From: Raillietiella orientalis
Taxonomy: Eukaryota
Length of the DNA stretch: 64,000 nt
Assembly (NCBI GenBank): GCA_036172245.1
Contig: JAYWIR010000015.1
Span: forward strand, 1,674,001-1,738,000
Reading direction: 5' to 3'
A program made the translations under genes and the position numbers. Positions 4,196 through 59,473 of the stretch are shown here, piece after piece. Each line of letters starts with the position of its first letter. Position 1 is the first letter of the stretch. The notes beneath the pieces are model-generated. The model made no database searches, was not told the DNA's origin, and was given only the letters and a program-made list of their open reading frames with translations.

Positions 4196-4209
4196 GATGG
4201 GGTGAAGTT

Positions 4210-9914: not shown

Positions 9915-10010
9915 GTCGTCAACTGCCCTTTTGTCTCAGCCGCTCACGCTCCCGGTCCAGGAACGTGGGAGGGACGCGCACTCCGTTCAAGAAAGGTGCG
10001 GCAGGCCGCA
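9915..10010 (+). repeat. copy B of the inverted repeat pair (partner at 8470-8590)
   Basis: See copy A. It translates SRNVGGTRTPFKK, against SRNVGGPHTLFKR in copy A. Confidence 0.75.
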
Positions 10011-10311
10011 TTCGGATGGCAGCCTCCCAGTTTCCAACGTGTTTCCGTGGCAGCTCCTTTCTCATCGTTCTTCGCTGATGCAATCAAGGATGCCCGTTCC
10101 TCGGACACAGACGAAGTCTTGTTCGTTTGTTTCTTCGTGAGTGCAGCCGACTCTGAAAGATGACGATTGCCTTTCATGTTGCTAATTGACGTATGCCTGC
10201 ATTGGAATTTTCCCTCTACAAGGAAGAATCAAATTCTTTCTCCCCCCCCCCCCCTCTCTCTCTCTTCGTCTTGCACGATTGAAACAAGGCAGGAAGGCTT
10301 TTTTTCTTTCA

Positions 10312-11615: not shown

Positions 11616-12538
11616 AGCCCTTGCTTATGTACCAATTTGGTTTCGCTGACAGTGAAATCAGCCGATCGATTCCCACTCTTAATGAGACGTGCCATTTGAT
11701 AGCCAACTTTGCCCTGTCGTTTAACCTATGATTTCGGAACGTCCCCCATCTCAAGTGGGTCCCTTCTCAACAGTTTAGGTTAGCAAACAAAAGGTGGTCG
11801 CGGTTATTTGATTGTACTTTGGTTGTATCTTTAGAAATCTGCATTTGTACATTTCATGAAGAATGAGTCATGTATGGAATCCATTCATGGAAAACCCCAA
11901 TTTTTTTCCCTCACTGGAATGCTTGTTGGTCAGCACATTGAAGCGCGTGCGTTTTTCAGGCCATCTGAAAGATACTATCGGAAGAGAATTCCTGAAATTG
12001 GTAAAGTGAATTTCGAGAAAATGCGTGGAGAACGTGGTGTGGGAGGGGGGGAGGAACAATTATCAGGAGAAACGAAAATCTTCAAAGCTGAATTTCTTTA
12101 GGTCAGCGGGTTATAAAAAGTGGCCTCGCACTCAAATCAAACTGGTTTCGCGACTAGTCTCATTTTTATTTCCTCTGCTTTACAAATTTTTCCAGCAACT
12201 TTTCGCATTACAGGAAACGCACATGAAACGAAAATCGTAGAGGGGGAAAGTACGGATGATAAGAAATCCGGTAATCATGTAAAAAAAACAATAGATGATG
12301 TATAATAAAAGATCACACTCTGAAGCTGCCATAATGAAGCAAAAAAGTTGTCTGTTACTCTCAAAACAGGGAGATACTCAAACTGCATTCTTTTCGCATT
12401 TTGCCCACTGGTACATCGTTTCGTGTACGACAACCCATCCAGAAAATTAAAAAAAATCCCGCCGAAGCGGGAAAAAAGTTGGAAACTTATGCGTGATTGA
12501 AAAAATTCTCTCTTCCTCGAGGAACTCGAACAGGACCA

Positions 12539-15500: not shown

Positions 15501-18500
15501 ACCCCTTTAGTATATCTACTGACGTTTATCGTGATGCTCCCAAAATTCAGGTTCAGATTTACTCTCAAACATAGGTTCACTGGCAATCTCATCCAAAGCT
15601 TTAAGCAACCCTTAGACCAATGAGACAAAACAAACAAACAAACATTTCCACAGTCGATCTGGACACGATTGTGGAATTTGTGAGAAATTCCAAGAACTCT
15701 TTCTAAAACTTCATGCAGGCGTTCTCAGCCACGTGTCCCCGCTCGTGTTCCTTTGATCTCGGAACCCTCTTTTCATCCGCATCTAGCTCATGGGCTTAGA
15801 TATACCTACAGCTTGCTGCAACGAAAACTCACCAAGAGCGCTGCCCGGGTGTGAGATTCTTGCCACAGTTGACACTACGCTGATCAGGACATCTAGCAAT
15901 AGATATCTAATAAGGGAGCTCTACGATTCTTCATCAAAAGGTTTCACTGCTTGCACATCACCAGAGCTCTACTGCCTTCCAGGGCTTACAATTGGATTAA
16001 GTCTACAGGAGCGGAAGCAGCAGAAGCCTTCCAAAGAAAAAAGAGCTCACGGATCCTTTGTTGTGCAAACGTATTCACTTCGACAAGTGGGAACATCGGC
16101 TTCCACACCATCGTAAAGCTTCTTCTTTGCTGTAAGAGAATGTCTTCCAGCTTTTCGCCAACCCTACCGCGATTCGAGTTTTCTCCCGGGCTCACTTCAA
16201 CCACCAACCTCCTTCTCAATTTCCTTGACACATGTTTTGCCGTTAGGAGGAATTTCATGATCCCTTCTCTGTCATCTGACTTCCTTGATGCTTAATAGGA
16301 TCCCTTCTTCGTCCTTGGGGTCGTTTTTCTCTTCTTTTCCAGACACAGCTGCGGAATGTTTCCGCTTTTCTTTTGCTTCTTCCGAAAGGAAAATTTTTCC
16401 TCACAACTCACGGATGCACCTCGAGGCTTGAGAGAGAACGTTGGAACAATCTTCCAGGATATTCTGACCCGACATTTCCACACCATGCTGACATCAACAA
16501 TTCGACATCAAACTAAATGGGTGTAAAACTGACAACGGACTGCTGCACAGTTATTTGTATTTCAATTGATGTAAATGCAAATTTCTTTCCGTTAGCCATC
16601 AAAAACGTCTAAACTGTTAAGCCGAATGGAGGAAGGAAGTTTGGCATAAGTGGTCCGTTTTCGCAATTCTCTGCAGCTGACGACCAAAGACATCTTGTTC
16701 TGCATCATCAGGGAGTGGATCGATTCATTCATTAGATTCAGCAGTGGATGACACGATTAGTGTACGTTCACCTGACGTTCATTTGCATTGGAGATCAGAC
16801 CAAGGATGGAAAATCATGGCATTTCTGAAACTGAAGGAGGCAAGTAGTTTCCTGGAAAGCATTGATGGGCAGAAACAGAGACATCTGGTAAACTTAAAAC
16901 GAAGCAATGAAAGCACTGGGACGGTGATTTGAGGCTTCCCATTCGAATGGGAGCTGATGCACGTTTTTCATCGTCTGTTGCTAAGAATCGTGCTTGCTTC
17001 CTTTTGTTTCCAACAGACAGCAAAATCATAATGAAAGGGAGTCATAGGACTTGTTAGGTACCATTGTGTTCAGACACTAATTGTCCAGTAGGTAAATCTC
17101 ATCACCTTATAAAGGAATGCCGCCGTTTGTTCCTCTCACGAATGATTTACAATTCAGCAAATCTTTGAACTGAATCCCTTATCGAATCAAAGAAGTGCTC
17201 GAGAAAGATGACTCGAGGAAAAAAACACACACACACATGCATGCACGCGTTCATTGCGTTTACACTCTTTCTGAGACGCCCTGAAATTAGATCGATCGGA
17301 ATTATCCGCTTGCATAGAAGGTACTCCCAGCTTCACTTCGATGTCGTATTCTCTCCCTAGCAATCTGGAAGTCACACCCCCGAAACGATACTCAGTCGAT
17401 ACGTTCTGCGGTCCTCCGCAGATCTTAGCATCAAGACAAAAATCAATCCGGGTCAGATGAAAGAGGTACGGTGGCTTAGGAGGAAAAAAAAAAAAAAAAA
17501 AATCCCAAACATTCGATTCAAACAGGCTTCCGCGCTTGCAACTAAGACTGGCAGCTTGCTCAGGTAAGATGCACTGATAATTAGAAGATGAAATCGTCCG
17601 ACCACTCTCTGACGATGCACCGATTGCCTTATAGTGTAACAGGTCATTTTGATAATGAGCATCTAGTCAGTTGTTTATAACTGTAAGCACTCTAACGTCA
17701 GGAGATCAGCATCAGCAACCACCGTACTGGGGAATGAACACAGCGATCTAGTGAAACATTTCCGCAGAAAGTGAGCAACACACATGAGACACCACACATG
17801 CTGCATATTTACCTTCGTCACTACTTATCTGACGTAAATGCGTCATGTCATTCTTGTTGCCAACCAATACAATGGGATAGATGAGGGAAATGGAATCTTT
17901 AGGCATCGATGCTCTTTGATCATCGATATACTTTTTCAACTTCTTTATGTGATTGAAGCTCGTCCTCTCAGTGATGGAGTACACCAATACGAAGCAGTTG
18001 GCCCATTGGATGGCTTCTAATGTAGGCATGCCATCTTTGGTGGGCTTGGGAAGGAGATCGAAACACCATATCATTATGTACTCAATGCATGATACACATC
18101 GTTAGTAGAATCACTACAAGCTGCTTCTGGAGGGGGGGGGGGGGGGATTGGGCACTTTTTTTTCAGTGCAACGCATCGAAGTTTCGTAAAAAGCTAAATC
18201 GAAAGATCAAAAAAAAAAAAAACCCTCATGTCATTAAACTGTAAACTGTGCGTGTTGCTTAGCTTTGCTTTGCTTTTTCCAATTTGCAGCCTACTGAGAA
18301 CCATCAACCCCGGAAATTCCCGTATGACGACAAACTCGGTCGGATTCGGATGCTCTCAAACTAAGCAATTCCATTCCCTTGTGCGTGCCGATCCGACCAA
18401 ACAGAAATGGGAATACAGTGTAAAGAGAAATGTATGTTGTCAAAAACATTCCTTGATGCACACTAAATCGAGACTTTTAGATCACGGTTTTCCTTCATTC

Positions 18501-21500: not shown

Positions 21501-24500
21501 GAAACTTTACATGGTAACGGTGTGGAAAGGGTGTGGACTCGTCACATCAATCCAGAGGAAGTGGATGCGCCGCAAGCACAGCACACGATCTCGAGGGCGA
21601 ACGAAACAGACAGCGCCTGGATGTGCAGAGTGAGGCTTTCCGAAACGGGATAAGTATGCGGGAGGATATCCACAGTTGGCAGCTTCGCGGACAGAATCAT
21701 CAAGGAAGAATCAGTTCTACAATGGAAAGCACTTCTACAGGGCAAGCGTTGGTGAATGCATAGATGCAGCACCAAAAAATCTTCATCGGCAACCTGGTGA
21801 TTTCATTCGTGCTAAGAGTGCTCCACTCTTTTCTGATAAGGATGAGATTTCGTTTGAAGTGGTGAAAGAAACTATATCCCAGGAAGAGAAGTCGCAGGAT
21901 ATTGCGATTAAAGAATCCGATGATTCCAGCACCGGAAGACAGCAGGAAAGCAGATGGTTGGTTGGTCCTGAATGATTATTATTTCCATGTTCTTCGAGGC
22001 GAGGCAGGAATTATTTAGTTTGGCGCAGTATCGAGAAGGAATTCTTGTTGCCTGTTGGCCAGTTGAATACGGAGAAAATCTCTGCGGCTACAGGAGGCAC
22101 CTGTTAGCACGCGAGACGTTCATGTCTGAATGACTTTGCCACTTTGCAATGTGTGCAGAGACAAGCAAGGCTCAAGAATGCTGAATGCCCAAGGCTGCCT
22201 GATTTTAGCAAGGAACCACGGGAGGTGCATTTTACTTTTGAACCTCTTCGAAACGGAGGAAGCCAACACAAAGAACGCGAACACTTTTGACTCTTGCGCG
22301 TATCCTCGCTGAACTGAACAAGCATGTAGATGGTGGATACTCCCAGTAAGGTTTCTGTGATGTGCTCCTATCATTGTGGTGATAAGAAGAGGAATCCTTA
22401 TCATCAAGATGGATCCACTGTGGTGGTAGTGAACCGACTTTTCGCTCATGACCCAATGACAATTCATTTAGAGCATTCATTGAGTATCTTAAACATCACT
22501 GTTGCAGGAATTTTGTTTGTTGTGGCACTGCTCTTGTATGCTGGTGGCTGGGGATCAAAGACTATAGAGTATATAAATTTTTCATTCACACGTGTGGTGA
22601 AAAAGCGCAACCCTTTGATGTTGGCGAATGCACTACTGGTGAGAAGCGAATGGCGGCAGCACAGCTTTGAAATGCCATGTTTCCAGGCTGGGCACTATAC
22701 TTCGCTATTGGCACCACTTTCCTAACATTCTTGAGTTCCATTCTTTCTTTGCAAGCAGAACTTTCCACAGAGTTGTCTAAAGAAAGTGACTGGGCACCGG
22801 GTACGCAAAAAAGCTTTTGCCTTTGGTAGCCAAATTACACTTGGTATGATGGTGACAAAGGATAGCCAGAATGTGCCCAGGCACCGGAACCTGGCCGGGG
22901 ACCACCTTTGCTTCTACGGTGGTGTCCAGCAGGCATTGGTGCATGCAGTGGCAGACTGGCAGCATTGGGGGGATATCGATGTCTTCTCTGTCTACCCATG
23001 CGTCTTAAAGTGGTAAATATTGATATCTCAGTAACTGTCAGAGCAGTAAGCACGAGACTGTGCACGGGTGCGTTGCTTTGACATTACACGAGCTAATAGG
23101 AGGCTAAGACAACCAGTAAAACAACGCTCTTTAAGATGACGAGACGGGTGCAAGGATGCAGGGCCGCTTTGTCATCCTGGATGGTGTGTGTGATTCTAGC
23201 TCGAGCTCCATTCAACTTCATTTAGGAAAAAAACGTGAGAGTCCACGGTGTTCGAGGGGGAAGCATCAGCATTCTGATCAGCGGTCGTCTCATTTGGAAG
23301 AGCTATTTCACAAAAGCGGACAAAGAAGCGCGTGCTCTCGCAGCTCGCCGGCAAAACCCAGATCTTCCAGCCATTTCTCGCAGATGAATTTGGACATCCC
23401 AACAAATTTCCACAAGTTGTTGAGACGATTAGCAAGAGGAAGTGATGAGTACCTTTCTGTTTCTGCTATAAGGGGAGAAGCAAAATGGAATTCCGTCACA
23501 GCTTTTGGAAAGATGCGAACAAAGACCGCGCTGAAAATCACGGTTTCCCAAAATTTGTAAATTTTTCAGAAATGAAGAAAAAGACCCCTTGGTGGAAAAA
23601 AAGAAAAAACCTTCTGGTCCCCAATCGGTTGGGAAGGAATAAAGCCGATGGCACGTTTGCAGCACGACATAAAGTTTCAAAAAAAAAATCCGAAGCGAAA
23701 ATAGCTCTTCCAAATGAGACGACCGCTGATCAGAATGCTGATGCTTCCCCCTCGAACACCGTGGACCCTCACGTTTTTTTCCTAAATGAAGTTGAATGGA
23801 GCTTGAGCTAGAATGCCTCGTGCTAAGAAACCGTTCTATAAACCGACACTGAGTTTCAAATGTACAGTGCAGTACTCAGATAGGAAAGCAAGCAGCATCG
23901 GTGACAGACAGGCATAATCAAGGCCATTGAACGGATCGTTCTTCTATCTGAAGCACTCTTATTCATGCAACAAACAGGGATATACAAAAGGGAGAATACA
24001 CAGACGCGACGTGATGCGGAAAGCCACGGTTTGGAAGCTGCAAGAAAGCATGCAATGATCTGTACAAAGAGAAGGTTTGCTTTTCATCAACTACGGTTTA
24101 TGGTTTCCGCCAACATATGCAGATGCTTAGAAAAAAGAAACACACACACACACACACACACCGGAGTGAAACACCTTTGTATCGACGTGTGAATCCAGAA
24201 ATAGTTGCTGACATGGTCCAAATCCTCACGTGACCTGCGAATTTCTTTCAGCCGCACATCGCTGACATTACGCATTTGCTCAGTTCTGTTTTACATGATC
24301 GTCGCATAGAAAAAACGCGTAGTCGATAGTGTACACAAAGCATGCTGTTACACATATCAATAAGTTGCGCAGAGCAATCTCTTGAGCAGAGGAAAGTCCA
24401 CTTGCGTGACGCTTGGCACTGCGTGCGCGCACGCAAGTGCATGGAAAGCATGACGATGAGCATGGATGTGTGTGGGGGGATCTGATGCTGCAGCTTGGGT

Positions 24501-43156: not shown

Positions 43157-45001
43157 ATGGCGCATGTACTATTCCTTTTAAGCCATTTTTTGTTTATGCT
43201 CAAACTATATGCAGCACCCACAAAGAACAGAAATATCAGTGATGTGGACGAAAGTGCTAATGAAATTGATTTGGCCGTAAATATTAATTTTTTGTTCAAG
43301 AAGTGGTATTGAAAATCAAGGGGGTTTTTATGATTGATTTGTTATCATGTTGTAATGGGAAAATTTGAACCTTGTATTTATTTCAAACATATCTTAATAG
43401 AATTTCAAGTTTTAAAGCAAACTGTCTATTGAACTGCAAGTCGCATATCAGAAACGGGAAAATGTACTTTTTGGAAAACAAACCTAGCTGCACTAGGTTT
43501 TCATTAATGTTTTTTAGGATTTCAACTTGGAATATGGAAGGTATTTGAAGGAAATTATAGAAACCTTAGAAGGCGATCAGAATTTCAAGAACCAGCTGGA
43601 GAATGCTGATCCTGATGATATAAGAGTATGCTAAGTTACTTAGAATTTAGATTTTTGATAATTATTCCTTGTGGATCTGAATGTGATATTAGTAATCATA
43701 TGTATTTAATATGATAGAATGGACGAATCGCTGATAGTCTGGGCTTGGTGGACTATAAGATACGATCAAAGCTCGATGAAATCAAGCGTCAAGAATTGGT
43801 TCGTATGCAGCAAGCATTTTCCCATGCAAAAGGTTCTGGTATGGAGCGGAAAAGATTGAGGGTTCCTTCGCATATCAATTATAGGAATCCTTACACTTTT
43901 GATGAAGATGACTTGCGGAAACTTATCGCAAAGGTTTTTCAAGTGCTAAAATTTGTTATGTTGGTTGTAGACTTCCAGAGATTTGGAAAAATATGACCAG
44001 GAAAGAAAAGAGGAATTTAAGAAATATGAGATGCAAAAGGAGTATGAGCGTAGAAAGCAGCTTCAAGAAATGGATGAAGCTCACCGCCAAGAAGCTTTGC
44101 GAAATTTCCAGTTGCAGCAACGGAAGCATAAAGAGCATCCTAAAGTATGAAGTATTTGATATGTACGTCACATAATTGAATTTGAAGGTCCATAATCCTA
44201 TGAGTGAAAACCAACTGGAAGAAATATGGGAGCAAGATGATCAAATGGAGCTAGAAGATTTTGAAGCCAAAACTTTTTTCCGAATGCATGGTGAGTTCAT
44301 AGTTGCCAGAAATATTTTTAGGTGCTCCTTTAAACATATTTTAGATCTGGATGAGGATGGATATTGGAATGAAGCAGAAGTGAAGGCATTATTTGTTGGA
44401 GATTTGGATAAATTATATGATCCAAATACTGCAGACACTGATATGCGAGAGCGTATGGAAGAAATGGAACTAATGAGAGAGCATGCCTTTCAGCAGACAG
44501 ATACTAATAAAGACAATATGATAAGGTTAGCTTAAGTGTCTTGCTGAATGCTGAATTGACCGGCACATTGCCAGTTTTGATGAATTTCTTAAGTATACAG
44601 CAGAAGAAGAGTATAAAAAAGATCCTGGCTGGCAGCCATTAGATGATAAACAGATTTTTAGTGAACAAGATTTACAATTAATGGAACAGCAGCAAGGTGT
44701 AAGTGTAGGTGTACATAACTGTTATACTGAAAAATTTTGGCCAGTTGAAACACATCCCTGATACAGATTCTCTGTCAAAAGAATCAGTTGGAGTTGAAAG
44801 TGCTCAGCACCAAGCACAGGTTGTAAAGTGATTTTGCTCCTTTATATTCAGATGTTACAGAATGAATCAGTAGTAATCAATGAGCATGTGGGGCAATCCA
44901 AATCCCCATCTGAATTGAATGTGCAGTCTAAGAATGAAAATGAGCAGCCTCCAGATCCCTCTAATCCCCATGTGCAGTCTCATCCTGTTGTTAAAAGTTA
45001 A
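43157..45001 (+). CDS. NUCB: nucleobindin (NUCB1/2-like EF-hand Ca2+-binding protein), multi-exon
   Basis: Signal peptide MAHVLFLLSHFLFMLKLYAAP, then LEYGRYLKEIIETLE, IRSKLDEIKRQELVR, TFDEDDLRKLIAK, EEFKKYEMQKEYERR, QLEEIWEQDD and KTFFRMHD. EF loops are DLDEDGYWNEAE and DTNKDNMISFDE. The C-terminal exons and the stop at 44999-45001 are inferred. Confidence 0.95.
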
Positions 45002-45039
45002 TATCATGTACTCAATACATAAGTAACAATATGACAAGT

Positions 45040-46482
45040 TTATAATTCTTGTTGACTGATTCGAGGACTATGTGGGGAGCGTCTTTTCAATTTATGTTTA
45101 AGCTTTGGTGGAGCAGTAGTAGTAGTGGCATAAGGGTTTTGGTAATCTGGTGCTTTATTTATTATTCCAAGTTCTTGTGCTGCCTGAAAAATATGTGAAA
45201 AATGAGTTCAGAAATGCTTACCAAGTGCAATAAATTGTGGGTAGCTGCATCTAACCAGTAGCTTTGGTTACAGAATTGAAAAGCCCATTGCAACAATTTC
45301 TTGGGTGTTTTTTTTTGTAGAACATGATGCACTGCAGTTGGTTCATGCAGTAGCAGGTCTCCAAGAAAAACTGTATTTTCAAAAACCAGAGATACACCTA
45401 TGTACAAAATGTTTCATGAAGATTTAAGCAAGTCAATACTTTCTCTAAGTTGCACATCATCAGGGATATGCGAACTTGTGAAATTGGATTCCAAAATTTG
45501 TTTTCTTTCTTTAAGTAAGATTTCAAGAATTTTCTCAGCAAGCAACTTGACCATGTTGAAGCGCTTCTCATAATTCTTCAAGCCGTGGATTGATGCAATT
45601 GCTTCTGAATGTTGTTTGCGCTTAATTAGGAACAATCTTTGGACTACTTGTTAAGAGTTAGATTACTGATGATTATGCAATATTAACATGATTATTGTTC
45701 ACATGTGTGCTACAAATCTTAAACAGATACAATAGCCCACTGATGCAGCACTCATTGTAAAATTATAAATGTTTTTGCCACCAAACTGGCGTGTAGATCA
45801 GTTCAGCGATACTCGATGTTACAGCAATTCTGTTTGATTTTTTCCCATTGCTTTCATGCATGGAAGTCAGTTTTTTAACTCTTAGAACTTTTTTTTCGTG
45901 CAAGCATTTTCAACAAAAAGAAAATTAGCGATCACAAGAAAATGCGACTATGATTATGTACATTGTCCCTTTGAAGAATACATCTTTCAATGCACCACCA
46001 CACTTGGTCTATAATTAAAAACGTGCACCAAAGATAGCAATAAGGAACTTTCTTTACTCCCAAGTTGTTTACAATCAGCTTAACTTATATGCCAAGTTTA
46101 TTGAATTCTTAAAAGAAAAACTTAATATTGTGACTTATAAGAATTAGACTTGAAAACTAAAAAGAGTACACAAAAGTGACATTTTCTGTCCCCTGTCTGC
46201 TAATTATAGTTCTACGAAGCAAAAAAACTATTCATTCCATATTCAACAATATGCCTAGCATATGGGTATCAAAGTGTTTTACGTTATCATTAGTGAAATG
46301 AAACTTCGAAACCAGTTTCCCATCAGCTCCTTACATGAAAAACGGAATATCATGAAGATGCTGCAGTAATACTTAAAGAGGATACAAAGCTTGATGGAAT
46401 CTACTTGTGATTCAACATCTGCTTTTGAAATAGCATCCAATGGCTGACAACCATGTGCCCAAAGCAATAGAACCAAAAGGGC
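45040..46482 (-). CDS. CCDC134: CCDC134-like ER-luminal protein; start codon not located
   Basis: Exons are 46482-46386 (ALLVLLLWAHGCQP..VDSIKL), 45643-45440 (FQRLFLIKRKQH..), 45397-45222 (SLVFENTVFLGDLLL..LQWAFQFCNQS) and 45183-45040 (AAQELGII..YQNPY..PRISQQEL*). These match recalled CCDC134 motifs ENTAFFGD, WGISFCNQT, AQELGI and the C-terminal xxEL. Confidence 0.88.
45644..46385 (-). other. candidate U12-type (minor spliceosome) GT-AG intron in CCDC134
   Basis: The 5' site is GTATCCTCT. A branch-like CTCTTAAC lies at 45657-45650 near the AG, with no polypyrimidine tract. The phase-1 join restores the reading frame. Confidence 0.7.
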
Positions 46483-46565
46483 CTACAACAAGCTGATTAA
46501 AATGTTAAACAAATCAAGTGGTAATATGATGAGACAATCTCTCCCACTTAACTATTTTTCATGAT

Positions 46566-46571
46566 TTTATT
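46566..46571 (-). promoter_or_regulatory. probable polyadenylation signal of the PI3K gene
   Basis: AATAAA on the minus strand, ~80 nt after the PI3K stop codon. Confidence 0.5.
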
Positions 46572-46649
46572 TAATACAATATCATTAAAAAATAAGCAGT
46601 TTAAAATCATATAGTTTTTCTAAGAAATTTTTGACTAGATGTGATCACA

Positions 46650-49600
46650 TTATTGAAATCGTATCATGTTCCCTAGCTTGAGCCAATGTACAGATTCCTT
46701 GCAAAGATCCACATCACCCATAAACAGAGTCACAGCCCCCAAAAATTCATTTTCCTGAACCAAATCGTAATTCCAAACTGATGCTTGCATTGTACGCTGT
46801 TGTAATACTTCCAGGGGCATGCGATATTCCAACTAACACAAATAAAATTAGCAAATTGCTTGTATAAACAAGTTCACTTACCATTTCCATAAAGGTTGGA
46901 TGACAGCTTTTTTTAACAACTCGGGTTTTACGCTTTGTTATTCTCAATGCATCAGGTTGTAAGTATACTTTCACATATGCGGAAGGTTGTTGACCATTAG
47001 ATGCATGCAGATCTCGTGCATGATGAATCATAAGTTGCAATGTTCCACGGCAATAGAGCAGTGATAAACGAAGTTCCCCATACACTCTTCCCAACTGATA
47101 TTTTTCCAAATTCATTTCTTTACGCTCTATAAAGCAAGCTTCTTACTCTCAGGAAAAGTATTCTGGTACCTACTTTGGATAATGCTGTCCTGGGCTCCTG
47201 TGTCTTGTACATCTCGTTGTAGCTGATGGAAAAAAGTATATACCAAATCAGAATGGGCAATTTCTGGAGCTAATTGGAACAGCGAATCCAGAAATTTATC
47301 TATTTCTGTGCACCTCCTTTGTGCTACTTGTTTAATGCTGGAGCGACCAATAGATTTTCCTCGAGGCAGGCTATGGCATGCTGCTAAAGGAAAATGGAGA
47401 CATAATTTCTGATGTAACTCGCAAAATTCACGATAAGAACGAAAAAGAAACGAAGGAGTCAATCTGCCTTCTCTTTCTACTTTCACTACATACACATAGA
47501 ATTTTTCAGGTGCATAGCGCTTTTGAAAACTAACTATGCAAACATTTTGAATGCGTCCCTCTAGCTGTATGCTACATCTGATGTTAACAACTGCACATAA
47601 AATAAGGGTTCTTACCTATATGTTTTAGGAACAAAGCTTAATAATGAATTGCTATCAGTTGGAAAACGTAACTGCCCGAGTTGATGAATGAAGAAATTCA
47701 CTTGAGTAAACCAAGATCTTAAGGATTCTTCAATAAGGCGAGTAAATGTAGCTGCTGCTTCAGCCTTTGACATTTCAGGCAGTAAAACTGACTGAATGTA
47801 CTTGATAGAATCTTTGGTGAGATCTGAGATGCTTGATGAAACCATCTGGATGTGTGTTAAAAAATATACACGTATTTTTTAAATGCAGTTACCAAAGCAA
47901 ACAGATTGCAGAAAACAGCACTGTATTTCCTAAGAATATTGAATGCTTCACAACAGAGATCAACAAAATACTGGAATTTTTCCGTTGGTTTGACTCCATC
48001 ATTAATGACATATACCATGTCTGGTGTAAGGACAAAAGGTGCTCGATCACGGCGGAAATTGCCAAAGCGCTGAGCATTGCCCAAAAGTCGGCTAAAATCA
48101 ATATGAAAGAGGTGGCCAGTTGGCTTTAACATAATGTTGTCACTGTGTCGGTCACAGAGCCCTAACACATAACTAGCCACACAATATGCTGCACAAGAGG
48201 CTGTGAAATTGCACACAGCTTCTGCATATGTCATGGAAGTAGGATTATGAAGAGCCAACCAAGCAGCAATTGGACGATCTTGAAAAGCACCAGTCAATCC
48301 TCTTTCAGATTGAATTCGGCATAAAGAATCAGCATCCCCAATCAATTCCAATATACCTGAGTAGTAACACCAAATCAACCAAATAAAATGCAAATGAAAT
48401 ACCTTTCTTAGTGCCAGTTGGAATACAAAAATACGTTATGACTTTTAAATCCAAACCTTCTTGCAGCCATAACTTATCCATCATCCAAATTAATTGCATG
48501 GTAAGCCTATCTAGACGCAAATCATCGCCAATCTATATCCACCCAGACTTGAAAAACAATCACTGAAGAATTCTTTTTTACCTTAAAAAGTACTTCAATA
48601 GGGGAATCCATAAAGCCAGAATTTACAAAACAAATCTTCAAAGGCAGATTATAAGAATTAAAGTATGAACTAGAGCGCACATCAACAGAGCACACACGCA
48701 TACCAATGCTCAAAGGAAGGCTAACAGCACCAAGCTGTGATTTCAGTTTAGCATCCACCAACTGCAATTCTCGATGCAGGATATTCACTTTGGATGTGTT
48801 GTCACGTGCTGCTTTTAAATAATATGCCACACTTTCCAAATCCTAAAGTTGCAAAATAAACAGCGTCAGATCTTTACAATAATGAGAAACTTGCAAACCT
48901 TAATAAGACAACGCTGGCTAGCCAGCTGTTCACAGAAACTGATACCAACTGTTTCAAGGAGACCTCGCCTAAGAAGTTCGGTTCGCCTCCAATATCTCCA
49001 TTCTAATGGATGTCCAGATATATCCTGGCATTCTTCTACACTGCACTGCAAAAGCCAATATAAATGATGACAGAATGCAGGAGAAAGCAGAGCTTTTTCT
49101 AAAAGAAAGTGTGACAACACTGATGACTCATAAGTTTCATGCCGGAGGGCTTGGACAAGTTGAGGCAAGAAGTATACAAGTTCATCACTTTTCATAGCTT
49201 TGAGCCAATGAACAGCTTGTGCTCTTACTTCAATATCTGGAAAACTTCATAGGCATGCCACTGAGCTCTAAAGTTGCCTCACCATGGTAAGAGCAGCTGC
49301 AGGGCGTCAACAGGGTACATTGGCACCCACGAACGGATCATACTATATAGATCACTCAAGCTAAACCAATCCCAACTATGAGCAGACAATAAAATTTTAG
49401 GCAATGCCTGCGGAAATTGAGAAAGATAATGACGTTTTTCCCAGAGCACTTCTCGTTCTTCTGGTCGTATCCTAAACGAAATTTTTGAAATACAGCCTTT
49501 ATATGTTGCTTACCATGCATAAGGATCACGTTCAATAATATCCATTAATTGTTCTTTTGTGTTTTTATCTAAACTATCAAAATCTTGCATAGGAATAACT

Positions 49601-52600
49601 GTCACATCATCTGGAACTGGAGGAAAATACACCTTATCTCCTAAGACTGGGATTTCTAAAACTGGAACAAATAAATCACAATCAAACAGAGAAGTAAAGA
49701 CTGCAATTCCTACCCAACCTCCCCAACAACTGGGCTGGACGCAATCCCAATGGAGGTGCAGGCCCAATTCGTTTATCAGATATTGGAGGCCACAATTCCA
49801 AAATAAAAAGTCCTTGTCGCATCCTCCTAAGTGGCATTTTAAAGCATTATAGATTTCTTATTTACTATTCTGATTACATTAACAAATTGTATACATACCT
49901 TTTGCAGTCTATTAACTGTAAGGCAGTCCAAGCTAATTCAACATACGAAAGTTGATTTTCAGTATTTTGTAATCCTACCAAGGAAAAGACGATACGAGAT
50001 TCACGGGGCAAAAGGCACAAGGGAACATCTGGAAACCGGAGCCTGAAACAATTATGAATCTTACAGAATTTATGCTACCTTGAGGCGTTTTCAACATTAG
50101 TAAAGATTTAGCAAACCGAATACATACAAATTTCTGATACTTAAATTACAATAAATGCACTGAAAAGATAATCAAAACATTACGTAAGTATACAACTGAT
50201 TTTTTATTCTATTATGTGCTTTTTTTTTTCACAATTCTACAACATATGTTCTCTATCTTCACTTTACATGTATTTTATTTTCATCATGTTGCTACGTATG
50301 TTTTTTCATCACCTATTTGAGAGCTGTATTTATGGGTACACTGCATGAAGCAATAGAAAACATTTACATTATATATTAAATCAGATCAAAGAAACTTTTC
50401 ATTTAGAAAACCTGCTTCAAAACAAATCATTACATGGACTTACGGATTTGTTGCTCAGCAAGTCCTTCTATGCTAATTTCAAAATTAAGCTTTCATTTAT
50501 TGTTTTTTATATATACCTACGCCATTCTGGAGTCTAAATGCCATAATTACATTATATTTATAATCATTTCTAAATTATATATAATTACATTATATAAGAT
50601 TTAGAACACCAAAAGAGCACTTGAAAGTTAGACACGAATTTCATTTTAAAACCACCAAGTTCAAGGACTCAAATTAACACATATGCATACCATTAAAGAA
50701 GCAGCTATTAGTATTTTTAAAGTTGCCCCTTTATGCATATAAATGTCAACAATGTACACATCAATCACTTTATATGCTATCGAATTTATGTAAATAAACT
50801 TGTTCCAAGCAAGTTTGGAATTCATAAGTGTTACAAATCTCAATAAGCAAACATTTGTAAAGATGATGCAATATCTGTTCACGTAAAAAGATGGAATTAA
50901 TTACAATAGTTATCAAACTGATCATAAATTATGATATTTAACAGAAAATCATTTGAATTGATGGAATATTTAACAACAATCATCACCAAATCTGCTCACC
51001 ACTCATCTATGAAAACTTTTTCTTTGAAACCTGGAAGCAAGTGCTGAGATGCTGTAGATGCAGTTCCTCCAGTGATCAATGTGGTCCCATAATAAAGGGA
51101 AACATGCACACCAAACATCTCATATTGACATTCAAGTTGTAAACCATGAATACTATCCACTCTGACTTCAAAGCTTTCTGATAAATCAGGCAAATTTAGC
51201 ATTTCTAGACGGATGATAATGCATAATATTTAGAGGAATGTCACGAACTTAATTCAGAAGTTTCTTCAGAAAGAACAAAAAAATCCACAGGATATGAATG
51301 ACTGTATGCATCAATAAGATGACGCATTGCATCAGTTAATCTTGCCAGTTCAGAGTCCATGATAGATTGCTGATAATCACTAAGGATTTCTGATTGTCTA
51401 TCTGATACTGAACTACTCTGCTCACTTGATTTCTGCTAAAAATGTCTAAATCAGTCAAGTCAGGAGCAAATTTTCCTGATACCTTTAACTGGCTATGTGC
51501 AATGACAGTACACACTTCAGATAAACCTTTCTTGGCATCTATCAGCTCCTTAGTCTCCAGAGTATTAAGACAGGAACACACAGCTTTTACAGCTTGAATT
51601 ACACTATCTGCTCGAACACATGAAATCACTGACTGATGCAAACGGCTGATTTCCCTTTCATAAGCATCTATGATTACATGACAATGGGATTTATTGGTAC
51701 AGATTAAAAGCAAACATTATTGTTTGTATGTAAAAAGAAATAAAAGAAAATAGTAAAAAGAAAATGAAAAGTACCAATAAGATAGAGGAGAAATCAACAA
51801 GGATTATGAAAAGCACATACAACTGCATTCTTACCTAAAGTAATTAATAAATGCTGCAACACAAGATCTTGCTGCCCCACTTCTAAAAGTTTCTCTGGTC
51901 TGAGATGACTTAATTGGATATCATCATCTTTCTATTGTATATTTCGTAAAATGCCTTTTAGAAAGAATACCTACGCTGCGTAAAAAAGGCCTTTCCAAAT
52001 CTTGAAGAGGTAGCAAACATAAATGGACAGCTTGGTTGTTTCGAGAACACTGTTGAATAAAGTCATACTCTTTTAGTAAGGATGTTGAAGCTAAGTACTC
52101 TGCTCGGCCCCAGACTTGAAATATATACTCATCTGCATGGCTCACTCCTTTACCTAGGTGGCACAGCACTTGGCACAGTACATGTTGAACAGAAGAACTA
52201 ACTTAAAGCACAACATCAAGGATTGCACCAACAAAGAACTCAATCTTACTGTTGCATTGAAGTCTCCATTTCGGTAAATTAGCACTGGTCTGTATTTCTA
52301 GCCATATATTTGTCTCTTGCAAATGTGCACATTCTGACTTACTGCTAATAACCACTCCTGCATTTGTAACATGATCAGAGTAAACATACTGTGCTAAAAC
52401 AAACACTAACTAAACCTATGATTTGTATTGCTCACCTCGCAGATTAATCAACAAACGACAAAACATTTCAACTTCATCATCAAACTCATTTGACTGCCTT
52501 GACTTTACTTGAATTGTCAAATAATCATGGATCTGCTAACACATGCACAATCATGTAAGGTCATTTTAAAGGTGCAAAAATTATTTAAAATATCATAATA

Positions 52601-55600
52601 ATTGCATCCAAAACTTTCAATACTATGCAAATAAATTAAATCGTTAACCAAAGATGTAACATGAATACATACAGCAATTATTCTGAATTAAATTCAACTA
52701 ATCAACACATTTAAAACTAAATTTTCGAAAAGACATACAATCACTAGGTAGTCTTTGTATTTAAATATCCAAAGCTGTTTTATTTTGCAATTATCTGCTT
52801 TATTATTGAAATTTTAAGAGTAATTGGATTTTGACATCTCTAATCTCTAAGTCCACCTTATTTACGATTTCAAAAAAGGTTAAAAGAGTAAAAATAAAAA
52901 CTTCTTTTTCAATGTGTACATGAAATTTTGATTGTAAGATTCAAAATAGTAAATTACACAGCAGCACATTAATTCAGATTCAACAATTTTTGCTAACATA
53001 TTTTAAAAGTTCTGAAAATACAATAAGAAAAAAAGGTCCAAATCTTTGCAAACAATCTCGAAAATGACATAATATTGGAATTAGAAGGCTAGTTAGTTTC
53101 AACAATAAGACTATCAATAGTTGAACAGATTGGTTTCTAATTTTCTTAAAAAAACTGTTCCTGATTTCAACATGAAAACATTATTTCACATAGTAGTCAT
53201 CTGCTGCTTTTTTAACACAACATTAATTTATTCCTAATGTCCTTTGATAATACATTTACAAACTTGTTTATTTATTTACAAATTAACTATAAAATATCTT
53301 GCCTTCAATTTTTGATATCACTTAGTAATTGACTAAGATTACATGGTTTTCACAATATTATAAAACTATCATGTATGTGATAATTGCAAATAAAAATAAG
53401 ATACCTTAATTTTTTGCAATATTTTTGTGCGTTTTCTATTAAAGCATGAAATTAAATTAGATTTTTTAAGAGGAAGGGGTGGTGGTTTGTCATTTATACA
53501 CTGATATTGATTCAATGTTTCATATATGCATTCCTCTTTTCTAGAGTCCATTCCTTCCATATATTCAAAAGGATCACACATATTATAATAACTATTTTCA
53601 AACACACTATTTTTATCAACTGCGTATGCAGAAGAATTCTCATTTTTATTAGAAACAGCATTTGTAAAAGAACTATCTTTATTAATTTCTAATTCTTTTG
53701 CAAAATTCTTACTTGTATAAAGTGGATCAAAATACACTAAAACATTATCCTTATCTGAGATCACAGCATTATCTTTATCTACAATATCATTGAATGAAAG
53801 ATCAATTAAATTGTCAGATGAATATGGCAATTCAGATTCTGGATATGATAACTTTGGAACTTCAATTGATTCCACTGATTTAAATATCAATGGGAAACTT
53901 GTTTGGGATGCACAGGGAGATGTACTTGTTACAAAACGTGCTTCACATGGTTTCAACTCATTCTTAGTAAATGTATTAAAACTATTACTATGATCAGACT
54001 GTTTTTTCTGTTCTATTTCTGAAACACTACTGTTGACTTTGATGTCAATTTCAGAAAATAGAGATATCAAATCATTCTTATTTGTGGATGTTTTTTCTGA
54101 GTTTCTATGGACAAATTTGGGAGGAGGTTCAATGATGAAAACCTCATTATGCAATGAATCTGAATCAATGTCTTCAGTGTGGGTAGTAGCTGTTTTTTCT
54201 ATATGCAATCCACCTAGAAAAGAGTTAATCGGGGTGAAGATCAAAAATCTCACAGAAACATCCATAAGCAGATAAACATGCGATCAATACATATTTACCA
54301 CTTCAATTTCGAAAAAAACAAAAAACTCAATGAATCTTAATATTAAATGTTAGGATTACCCTAGTATAACCAATTATTATTCATTGAAAATTATTTCATG
54401 AAACAACAAGGTAAAAATATAAGCGAAATAAAAACTAAAGTGCCTGTTTGTTTACTGCAATTCCATTGAGACAATAATATAATGTAATGTGAATATTGAT
54501 TCAAAAATGAAATGAGAAAATGGATTAATCAAAATCTAATGATCATCCACTTAGGTTTATCAAACTTTCTAGCAAGTTATTCAATAATGCAAATGTCATG
54601 TTCGTATCTCAGATACAGATGAGAAAAATTGGTCCTTGTACACGTTGCTCCCTTTAAAACAACTGTGCATTCCCCCTAGTGTTAGAACTTACAACATCTT
54701 CCATAATTAAGTTAATTAAGTTCAATCATAGTATTTTAATGCAAATTCCTCCAAGAGTAATTATGTATATAGAGGTGACATTAAATAAGGCAAGAATGCA
54801 AACTCAGACAATAGTACATACAAAAAGTATGCAACACACACACATACACACATATTATAATTTATATATGTACGTACCTCTCTATCATCTAGCATCTCTT
54901 CTCTCACTATATATATATACATGCATAATGTAATTCCTATTGTATGAATTGGAATTAAACCAAAATCTGCACATATGTAAACATCTGTATATATATACAT
55001 GCAAATTTGGGTGTGATTCCTATTCATACAATCGTACATAATTTACAATCCTACATCCGTAATAGTAATTAATCCAGGCAGTTGAAATTTTTTTTTTCAT
55101 AAGAAAAACAGCTTTCTAAGTTACAGTGGATTCAATATTATTTGATACATACGTTAATGCATAACACAATTCTATTAAATTAAATTGGAACACTTTTACG
55201 TCTAATTGGATATCCTTCCTTTTATTCACTTGGAAATTTTTGACAATTAATAATGAAGACCTTATAAATACTTATGCATCTGACCAAAAACACTGCTTTA
55301 TGTTAAAATGACATGAGAATTCTCGATTTCAAAACACATTTGACGATCGACTCATGCCTTCCACAGAATGCACATAATACTTTTAGTGAACCTGTCTTGC
55401 TTGTGGCAAAATTATTACTCCACACAGGCCTGGAAATTTTCTATAGTCAAGCACGAGTGAAACGTAACATGGTAACATGGTATTGCTACTCACTAGAAGC
55501 TTTTTGCGAATCGGATTTTGGGTGAATATAAAGCTATGGAATCGCATTAAGAATCACTCATCACATAAAATACAACTACTCAAATGCACATAAGCAAACT

Positions 55601-55805
55601 TACAAAACTTTCTATTATTTTTCAGATCTGCTTCACTAATTAATCCTCTTTCACTAGCTTTTTGAATGGCCACCTCTAACTGTTTTTCATACATTTCTTG
55701 CAAATACTTCCTTTTTTTCTCTTCATTTTCCCAAGTTTCACGACTTAATTCGATTGCATATTCGAGATCCTTTTGGTATTTTTCGTCCCACTTACCATGA
55801 AACAT
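46650..55805 (-). CDS. PIK3C2: class II phosphoinositide 3-kinase (PIK3C2 / Pi3K68D-like), multi-exon
   Basis: N-terminal UIM-like DLEYAIELSRET. RBD and C2 exons follow, then helical FLPQLVQALRHE. The kinase domain has FKIGDDLRLD, YVLGLCDRHSDNIM, HIDFSRLLG and RDRAPFVLTPDM. PX domain FRSYREFCELH. C-terminal C2 YVKVYLQPD..TKRKTRVVKK..QENEFLGAV. Confidence 0.96.
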
Positions 55806-57099
55806 CCCTACATTGGAACACTAACCTGCGCAAATCGCAATCGTAGAGGTCCCAGAACCCGTCGTTCCTTCGGAAAAGTTCAAATATGTGATGTTTGCTG
55901 ATAAAGAACATGCAATCATCAATCGTGAGATTTCAAATATTTTCAGTTAGGATTTCGAATTAACACGAAGTAAGTATCTCGACCTAATGTTTCAAATGAG
56001 GGGTTGTGAAGAATCTTTGGCTGAAATCGTTTTGATGTGAAGAAATCAAACACCAAATCCATTAAAGCAAGATGCCAGGAAATATATTACTATCAGATGT
56101 CTTAAGAATATTTTTTTCAGATCACAATTTTAGCTTTTCAGCTCAATTTTTCAAGTAATACGTAATTCGTCGACTGCATTAAGATGAAATTTCTGCCAAA
56201 TTGATAATACATGTTCATTTTTTTTTCCTTCATTGAAAAAGACAGGTAAGCTAGATCTGATATCAAGGATCAAACTCTGTACATGTCAAGAGTCTTAGCT
56301 ATCCCTACATCCCCACAATTACAGCCCATGAACAATGTTCGGACATCGTGTTATTCCTCAAACCTATACATGGCATAAAGGCAAAAGAGACTCAGTATCC
56401 GGTCAAGCATATTGCTCTAAGAAAATACAAATTTAGTAAGTCTGAGAATCTGGATTATACATCTACTAAAATAGACAAGCCTGGTGCATATTAGATGCAA
56501 AACAATACTCCTAACGAATTCTAACTTAAGTATACCGAAGAGTATTTCCTCTTTCATCACCTTACTTAGTTAAGCCAGACTATCCGCGAAGACTCTACAA
56601 GTATCGAGCAATTACAACTGTCGAACCGTCCACATGAATTCTCCAGCTGTGACAAAAGGTCGGTCCATGTAATGCACATCGAACCGTTCACTCGAAGAAT
56701 ATTTTAAATCTACTTTCAAGATTTTTTATAAATAACATAATTAAAATCAGGAACAAAATTAATATTATCACGTAATGAATAAATCATGTATATAAATATT
56801 TTTATGTTACACAATAATATTGAAATTATGTAGATTTATACTAAAATATATTTGTATCAATTAATTAATTTATATTAAAAATTATAAAACACACACTTTC
56901 ACCTCCAAATTATTTTAGAATAAATTAAAATAAATAAACCTTCACTACTGCATAAAAATGACTAATTAATCCAAACACTTTAAAGATAAAACTTAAAATC
57001 TCTACCTAATTCTAATTACCACTACTTCACATGAAACCATTACCAGAGATAAGAACACTAGCAGGACAAGCATAGAAAAGCATCATTATATGAACATTG

Positions 57100-57420
57100 T
57101 GATTTAAAGCATCATACCGATCAAGGTATAGCAAAAAACGGTGAGCTAATCGTTAGATTCGACTCAATGTGGCAAACATTGACTATAATGTGACTGAGAC
57201 TTTGAATATCCTACCATACTGGATCATGGATTATAGTCGAAATGCCGTCTTGCTTCACGATAGACGGGACATTCAATGGACTGACAAGAAAAAGTCTAAA
57301 ATAGGGATGCAACGAGATGGACATGCGAAGTTTAGTTAGTCCTGAGAGAGATCACATAACAGTATAGAGAATGATGTGCAACTGTGTGAAGTGTGAAAGA
57401 TATTTGTGTGAAGTTCTCTA
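57100..57420 (+). mobile_element. possible highly decayed BEL/Pao integrase zinc-finger remnant
   Basis: GH...RMMCNCVKCER and an upstream GELIVR loosely resemble BEL motifs. There are many stops. Confidence 0.3.
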
Positions 57421-58745
57421 GACTTGAAATTTCATATGAAGATTGATGACAGCTGCCGGATTCAGAAGCTTCGATAATAAAAGATAGTTTATTTTCATAC
57501 TTATTGACACACCAATGTTTATAATTTTGTAAGAGTTCATTTCCGATTACTAATTTTGGTCAAATGGTAGTCACACCATACCTATTTTTCTCTCATGCTT
57601 CCGTTTCATCTACGAATCACAATAAAGTATTAGCCAATCCCTTATGATGACTTATTTCAGTACCATGAAGTCAATGAAGTCAGTTTGCTCCCTCTAGCCA
57701 CGAAATGCTTTAAAAAATTGGGACCAAACTTGCGATCTCGGAATGTGGACAAATAAGATAACCCTATTTTGTTTACTCGGAGGTATCCCTGATAAGGTAA
57801 CCTAAAAACCAACGATAAAGAAGACTATTTGACAAACATAACTCGAGGATTTCGGAGTAATCGAAAGAAATTCAAATTAGAAAAATAGACGTAAACATGA
57901 AGTCGGTGACTTCAAGAGCAATGCATTTTCACTGATGAGATTTTACTCTTGAGAAAATGATTAAGTGAAAGGAGGACCGATTAATACTTGATACTAATAC
58001 AATTGTGTGCACAAAGGTTCATGAATTTGTTCTTTACTTCGAAATTATGGCGAGACTACTGAATTAGTGCACGCAATTTGTGTCAGAATTATTGAATAAA
58101 AAAGAGGAAATCTATCTGTCTGCACACTATTATGGAGAGATGATAAGAAATACTATTACTGTAATACGTGGAGAGGAACAACAGCTATCTAATGTCCATC
58201 ATGAACGATGCTTTGCATTTAATTCAATTCAGTTCAAATTGATCTTGCTTACGAGCGAAGGAAGATTGTGGGTTAGAAATTCAAATTTTTAGAATACATC
58301 TCAGGACTTCAAGCAAATACTGTCAAAAATGCAGACCTAATAATGCGATCCCATAAACAAAATTAATGACGTATTCTAGTGAGATCCGAATTCTAGTCAG
58401 GTCGAATTCTCTCATCGTCAATGCCAATAGCAGTCCAAGACCTTATAAAGACAATAAAATGCTATTCATATTTGAGAATCAATTGCAAAAACTTGACTTT
58501 TTTCAGTGCTAGGATTTTCAAGAGTGTCAAAAGCGTCGATAAAACTATAGTCTCTTCTATTTTTCGCGAAGGAGTGTTATTAGTAGGTCTTTTCCTTTTC
58601 TTTTTTTTTTTTTAGTGGAACTCTTGTGTTCACAAAACTATCATACCGTTTTTCGGATTTTATGCGGTTTTAGTTTAAGAATGTGAACACACCAAAATAA
58701 ATATGATTCATTAACTTCGTCAAATTTCTTGTTTCCCAACAAAAA

Positions 58746-59473
58746 TTTTATCTAAACTATCAAAATCTTGCATAGGAATAACTGTCACATCATCTGGAAC
58801 TGGAGGAAAATACACCTTATCTCCTAAGACTGGGATTTCTAAAACTGGAACAAATAAATCACAATCAAACAGAGAAGTAAAGACTGCAATTCCTACCCAA
58901 CCTCCCCAACAACTGGGCTGGACGCAATCCCAATGGAGGTGCAGGCCCAATTCGTTTATCAGATATTGGAGGCCACAATTCCAAAATAAAAAGTCCTTGT
59001 CGCATCCTCCTAAGTGGCATTTTAAAGCATTATAGATTTCTTATTTACTATTCTGATTACATTAACAAATTGTATACATACCCTTTGCAGTCTATTAACT
59101 GTAAGGCAGTCCAAGCTAATTCAACATACGAAAGTTGATTTTCAGTATTTTGTAATCCTACCAAGGAAAAGACGATACGAGATTCACGGGGCAAAAGGCA
59201 CAAGGGAACATCTGGAAACCGGAGCCTGAAACAATTATGAATCTTACAGAATTTATGCTACCTTGAGGCGTTTTCAACATTAGTAAAGATTTAGCAAACC
59301 GAATACATACAAATTTCTGATACTTAAATTACAATAAATGCACTGAAAAGATAATCAAAACATTACGTAAGTATACAACTGATTTTTTATTCTATTATGT
59401 GCTTTTTTTTTTCACAATTCTACAACATATGTTCTCTATCTTCACTTTACATGTATTTTATTTTCATCATGTT
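58746..59473 (-). pseudogene. near-identical direct duplicate of PI3K segment 49563-50290 (C2-domain exons plus introns)
   Basis: About 728 bp are colinear from ttttatctaaactatc to ttcatcatgtt. I saw one substitution (ccttttgcag vs ccctttgcag). Introns are retained. Confidence 0.95.

Follow-up and report, generated by a model that had tools for sequence, protein, structure and literature searches.

In the 64,000-nucleotide stretch of DNA analysed here (the window), a gene of the CCDC134 family lies behind a class II PI3K gene on the same strand and, judged on its sequence, is intact, with four exons. The features on which the argument turns are as follows.

55805 (ATG) to 46652-46650 (TAA), minus strand: coding span of the class II PI3K gene, from Pfam domains and homologue alignment.
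55807-55790, minus strand: PI3K start cluster, with an acceptor-like tag (exon start at 55807), ATG at 55805, ATG at 55798 and GTAAGT at 55795-55790.
46890-46876, minus strand: end of the penultimate PI3K exon, ATG GAA ATG/GTAAGT (the slash marks the splice site), phase 0 and in frame with the CCDC134 exon.
46575-46566, minus strand: overlapping ATTAAA/AATAAA, likely the PI3K poly(A) signal and the sole one between the PI3K stop and the CCDC134 exon.
46485-46483, minus strand: in-frame TAG in the context ttgttgTAG, whose AG forms the 3' splice site.
46482-46386, minus strand: signal-peptide exon of the CCDC134-family gene, 97 nt, starting in phase 0 and ending in phase 1, with no ATG.
45644-46385, minus strand: CCDC134 intron 1, a candidate U12-type (minor spliceosome) GT-AG intron by consensus match.
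45646/45643-45440, 45397-45222 and 45183-45040 (stop included), minus strand: CCDC134 exons 2-4, with PF15002 matches.

The PI3K exons match PI3Ka (PF00613), PI3_PI4_kinase (PF00454), PX (PF00787) and C2 (PF00168) in succession, and these PIK accessory, kinase and C-terminal PX and C2 domains identify a class II enzyme (PI3K-C2/Pi3K68D). The kinase exon is 63-69% identical to arthropod PI3K-C2, and the first exon matches an insect homologue over that protein's residues 1-67. The neighbouring genes UTP20 and NUCB are ordinary and have ATG first exons. Elsewhere in the window a Ras-like exon lies at 17751-18101; a search for its 5' exons found none.

Membership of the CCDC134 family was judged against the Pfam profile PF15002 (ERK-JNK_inhib) at its gathering cut-off of 27 bits. 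Exons 2 and 3 score 44.8 and 51.9 bits, both above the cut-off, exon 4 alone reaches 17.8 bits, below it, and the exons span profile positions 17-180 of 200. Searches returned 91 representative homologues at E <= 0.001, with best identities of 36-42% and no protein above 42% in the collections searched; the closest, P0002 (42%), comes from a marine metatranscriptome set and is, at a guess, a copepod protein. Neither exon 2 nor exons 2 and 3, read through the 42-nt intron between them, gave matches in word-index protein searches. The introns after exons 2 and 3 measure 42 and 38 nt, the exon-2 donor GTATTG is weak (score 1.75), and the protein ends in QQEL, a terminal EL being found also in 11 of the 15 homologues read. 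The donor of intron 1, GTATCCTC, fits (A/G)TATCCTT at seven of eight positions, and a candidate branch site, CTCTTAACA at 45657-45649, fits TCCTTAACT at six of nine, 3-6 nt before tandem acceptors that start the next exon at 45646 or 45643. Matched by eye, without a scoring model, to the U12 consensus given in the introduction of PMC3291851 (that 5' splice site, and that branch site near the 3' splice site), both elements agree with a U12-type intron.

The signal-peptide exon, ALLVLLLWAHGCQPLDAISKADVESQVDSIKL, has no in-frame ATG. As the first-pass annotation had stated, it opens with GCC directly after a TAG that is an in-frame stop; the 22 codons upstream in the same frame likewise lack an ATG and are bounded by a further stop. 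The acceptor at 46482 scores 3.64, the 52nd percentile of 27 curated acceptors, and this exon boundary is supported because base composition jumps there, from a GC fraction of 0.25 in the spacer to 0.49 over the exon's first 39 nt. The encoded N-terminus is a hydrophobic ALLVLLLWAHG without Met, shorter than in all 12 aligned homologues, and its c-region AHG aligns with insect AHAQ, AHVQ and AHTQ. An alternative acceptor, CAG/CCA at 46443 (score 6.6), was rejected on the GC jump at 46482 and on the alignment of AHG with homologous signal peptides, and a longer exon 1 running to a stronger donor, T/GTAAGG, on the 17 hydrophobic residues that it would add and that are absent from homologues. No workable start results from reading through the TAG, from a slip in a homopolymer at ATG 46552 or from non-AUG initiation within the exon. 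Since the gene appears intact and conserved (the PF15002 exons, the U12-like intron and QQEL), it must have a start. With a Met alone the signal peptide would measure 12 residues, and because 12 of 12 aligned homologues carry 6-19 residues ahead of the position at which the exon's first Ala aligns, the alignment points to a missing part longer than a single Met.

We consider that the ATG comes from a small upstream exon by ordinary cis-splicing, and that an intact CCDC134-family gene genuinely uses 46482-46386 as an internal coding exon; we hold this explanation as a whole at roughly even confidence. The start codon, and probably several signal-peptide residues, would lie in a small, unrecognised 5' exon on the same strand, joined to 46482 by phase-0 cis-splicing. 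Since that exon would lie upstream on the same strand, the CCDC134 transcription unit would overlap the 3' end, or more, of PI3K. Three candidates were found.

46610-46578, minus strand: local ATG micro-exon candidate MILNCLFFNDI, donor ATT/GTATTA at 46577, 95-nt intron.
50738-50691, minus strand: 5' exon candidate within a PI3K intron, MHKGATLKILIAASLM, donor ATG/GTATGC at 50690, TATAAA at 50774-50769.
57073-57044, minus strand: 5' exon candidate upstream of PI3K, MLVLLVFLSL, donor CTG/GTAATG at 57043.

We would rank them in this order, followed by another exon, possibly beyond the window; both the donor that joins 46482 and the use of any of these candidates at all are matters that we infer, while the sequence itself shows the exon with its acceptor, the missing ATG and the candidates with their scores. 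The local candidate overturns the earlier claim that no phase-0 ATG donor separates the PI3K stop from the exon, as its ATG at 46610-46608 is open to the GT at 46577. Chance would be enough to produce it: 1.6-2.1 such candidates appear when the 167-nt spacer is shuffled, and the probability of at least one is 0.65-0.73. Its donor scores 0.84, the 3.7th percentile of leave-one-out scores for 27 curated real donors, and has no G at -1, A at +4 or G at +5; the peptide has one acidic residue and no basic one. No TATA motif was found for it, and Inr-like motifs near the spacer occur only further upstream, inside PI3K exons (TCAGTT at 46781 and 47098), against a background of 4.2 loose Inr-type motifs per kb. 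In favour of cis-splicing, this donor is about as weak as the gene's own exon-2 donor (0.84 versus 1.75). The donor at 50690 (score 9.33) is the best of the 50 GTs in its intron, its score being reached by 5 of 1004 antisense GTs, while that at 57043 (6.64) ranks fourth of 168 GTs in 55808-58745, with TCAGTC motifs at 57284 and 57197. Under a strict cut, chosen after the candidates had been seen, two signal-peptide-like ATG exons with good phase-0 donors occur in the 13.5 kb upstream versus none in 48.7 kb of control sequence; looser cuts erase the excess over controls (3 versus 2 and 7 versus 9).

Against cis-splicing, the distant candidates must skip about 13 or all of the PI3K exons, strong acceptors included, and such skipping is mechanistically awkward for same-strand nested genes. 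GCC is a typical second codon, and an exon that opens with it therefore favours a lone missing ATG, which also counts against an upstream exon with several coding residues. Ordinary genes whose first coding exon is very short, with a phase-0 intron just past the ATG, offer a close likeness: their exon 2 begins at or near codon 2, and ATG/GT fits the local donors; here, in contrast, the upstream space is filled by a same-strand multi-exon gene.

An alternative that we regard as unlikely is that PI3K and CCDC134 are co-transcribed, that the transcript is cleaved at the AATAAA, and that a leader ending in AUG or in a near-cognate codon (CUG) is trans-spliced at 46482 to give M-ALLVLLLWAHG. The geometry fits an operon, with the acceptor 83 nt past the poly(A) signal at 46575-46566 (the distance of about 83 nt first reported for the exon thus stands) and no room for a promoter; the exon begins exactly at a GCC codon, and no exon has to be skipped. 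The spacer does contain one weak cis donor candidate. Precedents counted in favour of this alternative are the chaetognath operons, defined by gaps of < 250 bp in a passage of PMC12460157, the flatworm leaders that end in AUG and give Met to > 40 schistosome cDNAs (Cheng 2006, as quoted in PMC9851317), and leader trans-splicing in two pancrustacean groups (PMC4664967, PMC5111886); the metatranscriptome match P0002, with its guessed copepod origin, was counted alongside them. In the flatworm system, as described in that part of PMC9851317, the coding exon at the acceptor likewise starts with codon 2 and needs an outside ATG. Leader-resolved metazoan operons are described for nematodes, tunicates and chaetognaths in passages of PMC12460157 and PMC7986045, and the likeness to those lies in a same-strand pair with < 100 nt between the poly(A) signal of the first gene and the acceptor of the second; the present locus differs in that the window's other genes look monocistronic, with their own ATG exons, and in its lineage, since PMC7986045 gives operons as unreported in arthropods.

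The lineage argues against such a leader. The PI3K tree places the gene inside Pancrustacea (SH-aLRT 99, on a long branch of 1.16), and its N-terminal motif is common to hexapods, Daphnia and an ostracod; a flatworm affinity, first suspected from the 38-42 nt introns, is ruled out by the PI3K identities, this motif and the tree. Among published leaders, those of copepods terminate in AAGAG, AAAAG or TCAAG and those of amphipods in ACTG, none in ATG, in contrast to the flatworm system; with a pancrustacean lineage and no published leader of the AUG-ending kind in it, the locus does not qualify as a case of the flatworm type. Operons are stated in a passage of PMC7986045 as not reported in copepods or amphipods, and neither an AUG-donating leader nor operons in crustaceans were found in the open-access literature searched. 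Copepod and amphipod leader motifs have no matches in the window, where none are expected, and an Rfam scan of the window returned no family; no tRNA was found either. A strong acceptor directly ahead of the ATG, which in several genes would be a sign of general trans-splicing, was found for PI3K only, UTP20 and NUCB having none at theirs; were an AUG-ending leader attached to that PI3K acceptor, which precedes the ATG by 2 nt, the transcript would gain an upstream start in the wrong frame. The resulting 12-residue signal peptide would also be short beside homologues.

Improbable in our view is that the gene has no functional start, either because a recent rearrangement or an assembly error removed or moved its first exon or because the gene has begun to decay. 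A stretch of 728 nt from PI3K (49563-50290) has a second copy at 58746-59473, 99.86% identical, and this repeat means that the locus either was rearranged recently or has an assembly problem. However, all four CCDC134 exons are open, in phase and conserved, their splice signals are kept, including those of the U12-like intron, and no single-base or homopolymer change near 46482 makes an in-frame ATG.

It is highly improbable, we think, that transcripts from the PI3K promoter join the donor at 55795, after ATG 55798, to 46482, with PI3K inside CCDC134 intron 1 and the two products mutually exclusive. This join is in frame, giving ATG GCC. Among GTs the donor, ATG/GTAAGTGG, stands at the 99.7th percentile with a score of 10.47, and the acceptor-like tag that precedes the PI3K ATG by 2 nt stands at the 99.1th percentile among AGs with a score of 8.7; because each score is reached by only three antisense sites in 25.5 kb, their co-occurrence within 12 nt is unlikely by chance. 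Loci with shared 5' exons are known in the cholinergic VAChT/ChAT and the insect Su(var)3-9/eIF2-gamma genes, where one promoter and alternative splicing likewise serve two products, one gene lying inside the other's first intron; here, by contrast, the two genes would have only one ATG in common, which overlaps the PI3K start in another frame, and about 25 PI3K exons would be skipped, including one with an acceptor scoring 9.67 at 54213. The PI3K ATG 7 nt upstream, out of frame, would compete, and the start would add Met alone, leaving a short signal peptide. Long-range pairing of the PI3K first exon with the spacer does not exceed that of shuffles, 17% of which equal it. The donor at 55795 is in phase 1, as is the PI3K exon 2 acceptor at 54213, and because the two are in phase it may be explained equally well by a PI3K isoform without residues 4-67.

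The ATG/GTAAGT donors named in the first-pass annotation lie where it had placed them, at 55798-55790, 7 nt past the PI3K ATG (55805) and in another frame, and at 46884-46876, where the donor is that of the penultimate PI3K exon and in phase 0. Neither is special or rare in itself, because ATG/GT is common here: it occurs in 6 of 27 curated donors, and the same strand carries 13 copies of ATGGT within the 13.5 kb upstream. The least probable explanation, very remote in our judgement, would use the second of these donors (46881), either from an internal start giving MEM-ALLV... or M-ALLV..., or in an in-frame PI3K-CCDC134 chimera that skips the last PI3K exon: the donor is the strongest in the region (score 11.58), lies 399 nt upstream in phase 0 and has one exon to skip, yet 49 nt, the intron length favoured here, separate it from its normal partner, a chimera would disrupt C2 and leave the signal peptide buried inside the protein, and no promoter motif was found for such a start, TCAGTT occurring only at 47098 and 46781 against the same background of 4.2 loose motifs per kb.

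Should cis-splicing from a small upstream exon be the correct reading, the locus would be an annotation trap, in which a hidden tiny 5' exon leads gene finders to truncate a conserved ER or secreted protein. More speculatively, and with considerable doubt, arthropod PI3K and CCDC134 might form one transcription unit in which CCDC134 has dispensed with a start of its own, the AUG being supplied by an AUG-ending leader or by a 12-nt start micro-exon with two overlapping AUGs that is shared with PI3K. If so, a lipid kinase and an ER-lumen protein would be coupled in a single transcription unit. A start supplied by a leader or by the PI3K first exon would mean operon-like or shared-start expression in a pancrustacean, and an AUG-ending leader, if real, would be the first AUG-donating leader, and the operon the first of its kind, outside flatworms.

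In Raillietiella orientalis the first recognised exon of a CCDC134-family gene, which encodes the signal peptide, has no start codon of its own, and this puzzle is real. The genes around it are arranged as follows (window positions):

55805 (ATG) to 46652-46650 (TAA), minus strand: class II PI3K gene, Pfam matches on successive exons
46482-46386, minus strand: CCDC134 exon 1, the signal-peptide exon
45646 or 45643 to 45440, minus strand: CCDC134 exon 2, PF15002 at 44.8 bits
45397-45222, minus strand: CCDC134 exon 3, PF15002 at 51.9 bits
45183-45040, minus strand: CCDC134 exon 4
convergent on the CCDC134 3' end, plus strand: nucleobindin gene
further downstream of CCDC134, minus strand: UTP20

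The matches along the PI3K exons are PI3Ka, PI3_PI4_kinase, PX and C2, and PI3K exon 1 aligns with residues 1-67 of an insect homologue. A spacer of 167 nt separates PI3K from CCDC134, whose exons 2 and 3 each pass the PF15002 cut-off (27 bits) separately. An exhaustive search yielded 91 CCDC134 relatives, with a top identity of only 36-42%; the C-terminus is QQEL, and 11 of the 15 homologues read also end in EL. The stop codons of nucleobindin (+) and CCDC134 (-) are apparently ~38 nt apart (44999-45042), which implies an antisense overlap of the two 3' UTRs; the roughly 190 nt behind the CCDC134 stop contain no AATAAA.

Elsewhere in the window, a 728-nt PI3K piece comprising exons and intron (49563-50290) is repeated with 99.86% identity at 58746-59473, 9183 nt further upstream, and this copy puts pseudo-exons resembling those of PI3K in front of the gene's start; it arose by very recent duplication or is an artefact of the assembly. 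Positions 1-12000 form a GC-rich island (50-55% GC) adjoining genes of 30-36% GC. Two copies, 79% alike, at 2015-2082 and 5930-5997 (CARCKEVESFPRLFVDC, YARCGEQESFPHLLVDC) encode a C..C....E..H....C-type motif, a type known from non-LTR retrotransposon ORF2 3' ends, and look like degenerate LINE remnants. An inverted repeat at 23193-23814 (arms of 116 nt, 98% complementary, separated by 390 nt) looks like a small element of foldback or MITE type. A lone Ras-family exon lies at 17751-18101 (-), covering PF00071 profile positions 70-142, and no P-loop exon was found across the whole window.

The signal-peptide exon, ALLVLLLWAHGCQPLDAISKADVESQVDSIKL, contains no in-frame ATG, follows ttgttgTAG|, an in-frame stop that doubles as the acceptor ahead of 46482, and lies 83 nt from the sole AATAAA (46571-46566), as the first-pass annotation had described. 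In its frame, none of the 22 codons upstream of 46482 is an ATG, and another stop closes this stretch. GC content is 0.25 in the spacer and climbs to 0.49 over the exon's first 39 nt, and the acceptor has a median score among 27 curated ones. Judged against the consensus in PMC3291851, CCDC134 intron 1 (45644-46385, -) looks U12-type: its donor is GTATCCTC, and CTCTTAACA, which resembles a branch site, lies 3-6 nt ahead of tandem acceptors (aag|tag|). A U12-type donor would explain the apparent donor weakness of the exon.

If Met alone were added, the signal peptide would be 12 residues long (MALLVLLLWAHG). In 12 of 12 homologues, the MAFFT alignment leaves 6-19 signal-peptide residues ahead of the exon's first Ala, and the exon's AHG lies opposite insect AHAQ/AHVQ/AHTQ. 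This offset is a hint, not proof, that more than Met may be missing, because signal peptides align poorly; the opening GCC, a codon that tends to be frequent in second position, counts against it.

All upstream combinations of an ATG with a phase-0 GT were scored using a matrix derived from the donors of the 27 curated introns. Exons here often end in ATG|GT, as at 6 of the 27 curated donors, and the motif occurs 13 times across the 13.5 kb upstream. The claim that the spacer holds no ATG with a phase-0 donor does not stand, since ATG 46610 is open to the phase-0 GT at 46577. Three candidate exons emerged:

46610-46578, minus strand: local micro-exon (MILNCLFFNDI), donor ATT|GTATTA, score 0.84
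50738-50691, minus strand: distant candidate (MHKGATLKILIAASLM), donor ATG|GTATGC, score 9.33
57073-57044, minus strand: distant candidate (MLVLLVFLSL), donor score 6.64

The micro-exon donor ranks low among real donors (3.7th percentile), and shuffled spacers gave 1.6-2.1 comparable candidates each, with one or more in 65-73% of trials; the micro-exon thus exists without statistical weight. The donor of 50738-50691 is the top of 50 GTs in its PI3K intron, its score is attained by 5 of 1004 antisense GTs, and TATAAA lies 36 nt upstream of its ATG. That of 57073-57044 ranks fourth among the 168 GTs of its region, with two TCAGTC motifs upstream. Both distant peptides are hydrophobic and continue smoothly into the signal-peptide exon. 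A strict cut, set after the candidates had been seen, gave 2 in 13.5 kb versus 0 in a 48.7-kb control, an excess that is fragile because looser cuts gave 3 versus 2 and 7 versus 9. Both would also need the skipping of many PI3K exons, strong acceptors included, which is a real mechanistic objection. We put the chance that an ordinary cis-spliced upstream ATG exon of whatever kind supplies the CCDC134 start at about even; use of the local micro-exon is a tentative choice within this class, and so, to the same degree, is the joint alternative of either distant candidate or an exon that escaped notice. Part of the total probability goes to none of the named explanations.

Leader trans-splicing at 46482 would need no exon skipping, and the PI3K-CCDC134 spacing looks operon-like, chaetognath operons being defined by gaps <250 bp (PMC12460157). 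In flatworms the spliced leader has AUG at its 3' end and is a known source of Met (PMC9851317, citing Cheng 2006). A flatworm origin, prompted by the short curated introns (38-70 nt, n=27), was set aside in view of arthropod matches, an N-terminal motif, a tree and the UTP20 cluster. Named matches among the best 120 for the PI3K kinase exon are arthropods (63-69% identity), the PI3K N-terminus WDEKYQKDLEYAIELS agrees with the motif YDKKFQEDLERAQALSLES seen in hexapods, Daphnia and an ostracod, and the nearest Atlas cluster of a UTP20 exon is largely arthropod. A quick IQ-TREE run on 44 rows, made up of the window PI3K (nine pieces joined into 868 residues, with X in place of one stop) and 43 homologues selected out of the 120 listed, puts the window PI3K within the pancrustacean clade (SH-aLRT 99) with no resolved position inside it, on a very long branch (1.16) that makes long-branch effects possible. 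None of the published pancrustacean leaders, the ones known from this probable lineage, carries an AUG at its 3' end: those of copepods finish with AAGAG, AAAAG or TCAAG (PMC4664967, Table 1) and those of amphipods with ACTG (PMC5111886, methods). No leader-like sequence turned up in the window, where none would be expected. UTP20 and NUCB, moreover, begin with normal ATG exons that no strong acceptor precedes. Trans-splicing is rather unlikely, and artefact or decay behind the missing start is more doubtful still.

The two ATG|GTAAGT sites reported in the first and penultimate PI3K exons are both present. Use of the penultimate exon's donor for CCDC134 is most improbable. A start shared with PI3K, in which the donor at 55795 behind the second ATG (55798) would join 46482, is very unlikely, although the acceptor-like tag| two bases ahead of the PI3K ATG (8.7, 99.1th percentile of AGs) and the GTAAGT (10.47, 99.7th percentile of GTs) are striking, with scores that no more than three antisense sites in 25.5 kb attain in each case. 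It would require ~25 exons to be skipped and initiation 7 nt downstream of an out-of-frame AUG, and no long-range pairing was found between the PI3K first exon and the spacer. Around the PI3K start (55790-55830, -), a stretch of 36 nt holds three splice-like signals with top-percentile scores, namely CAG|GTTAGT (9.12), tag|GG and ATG|GTAAGT. The 55795 donor is in phase 1, as is the acceptor of PI3K exon 2 (ttttctag|GT, 54213), and could merely yield a PI3K isoform without residues 4-67; joined in this way, ATG|GTAAGT could give an isoform lacking the N-terminal UIM-like motif.
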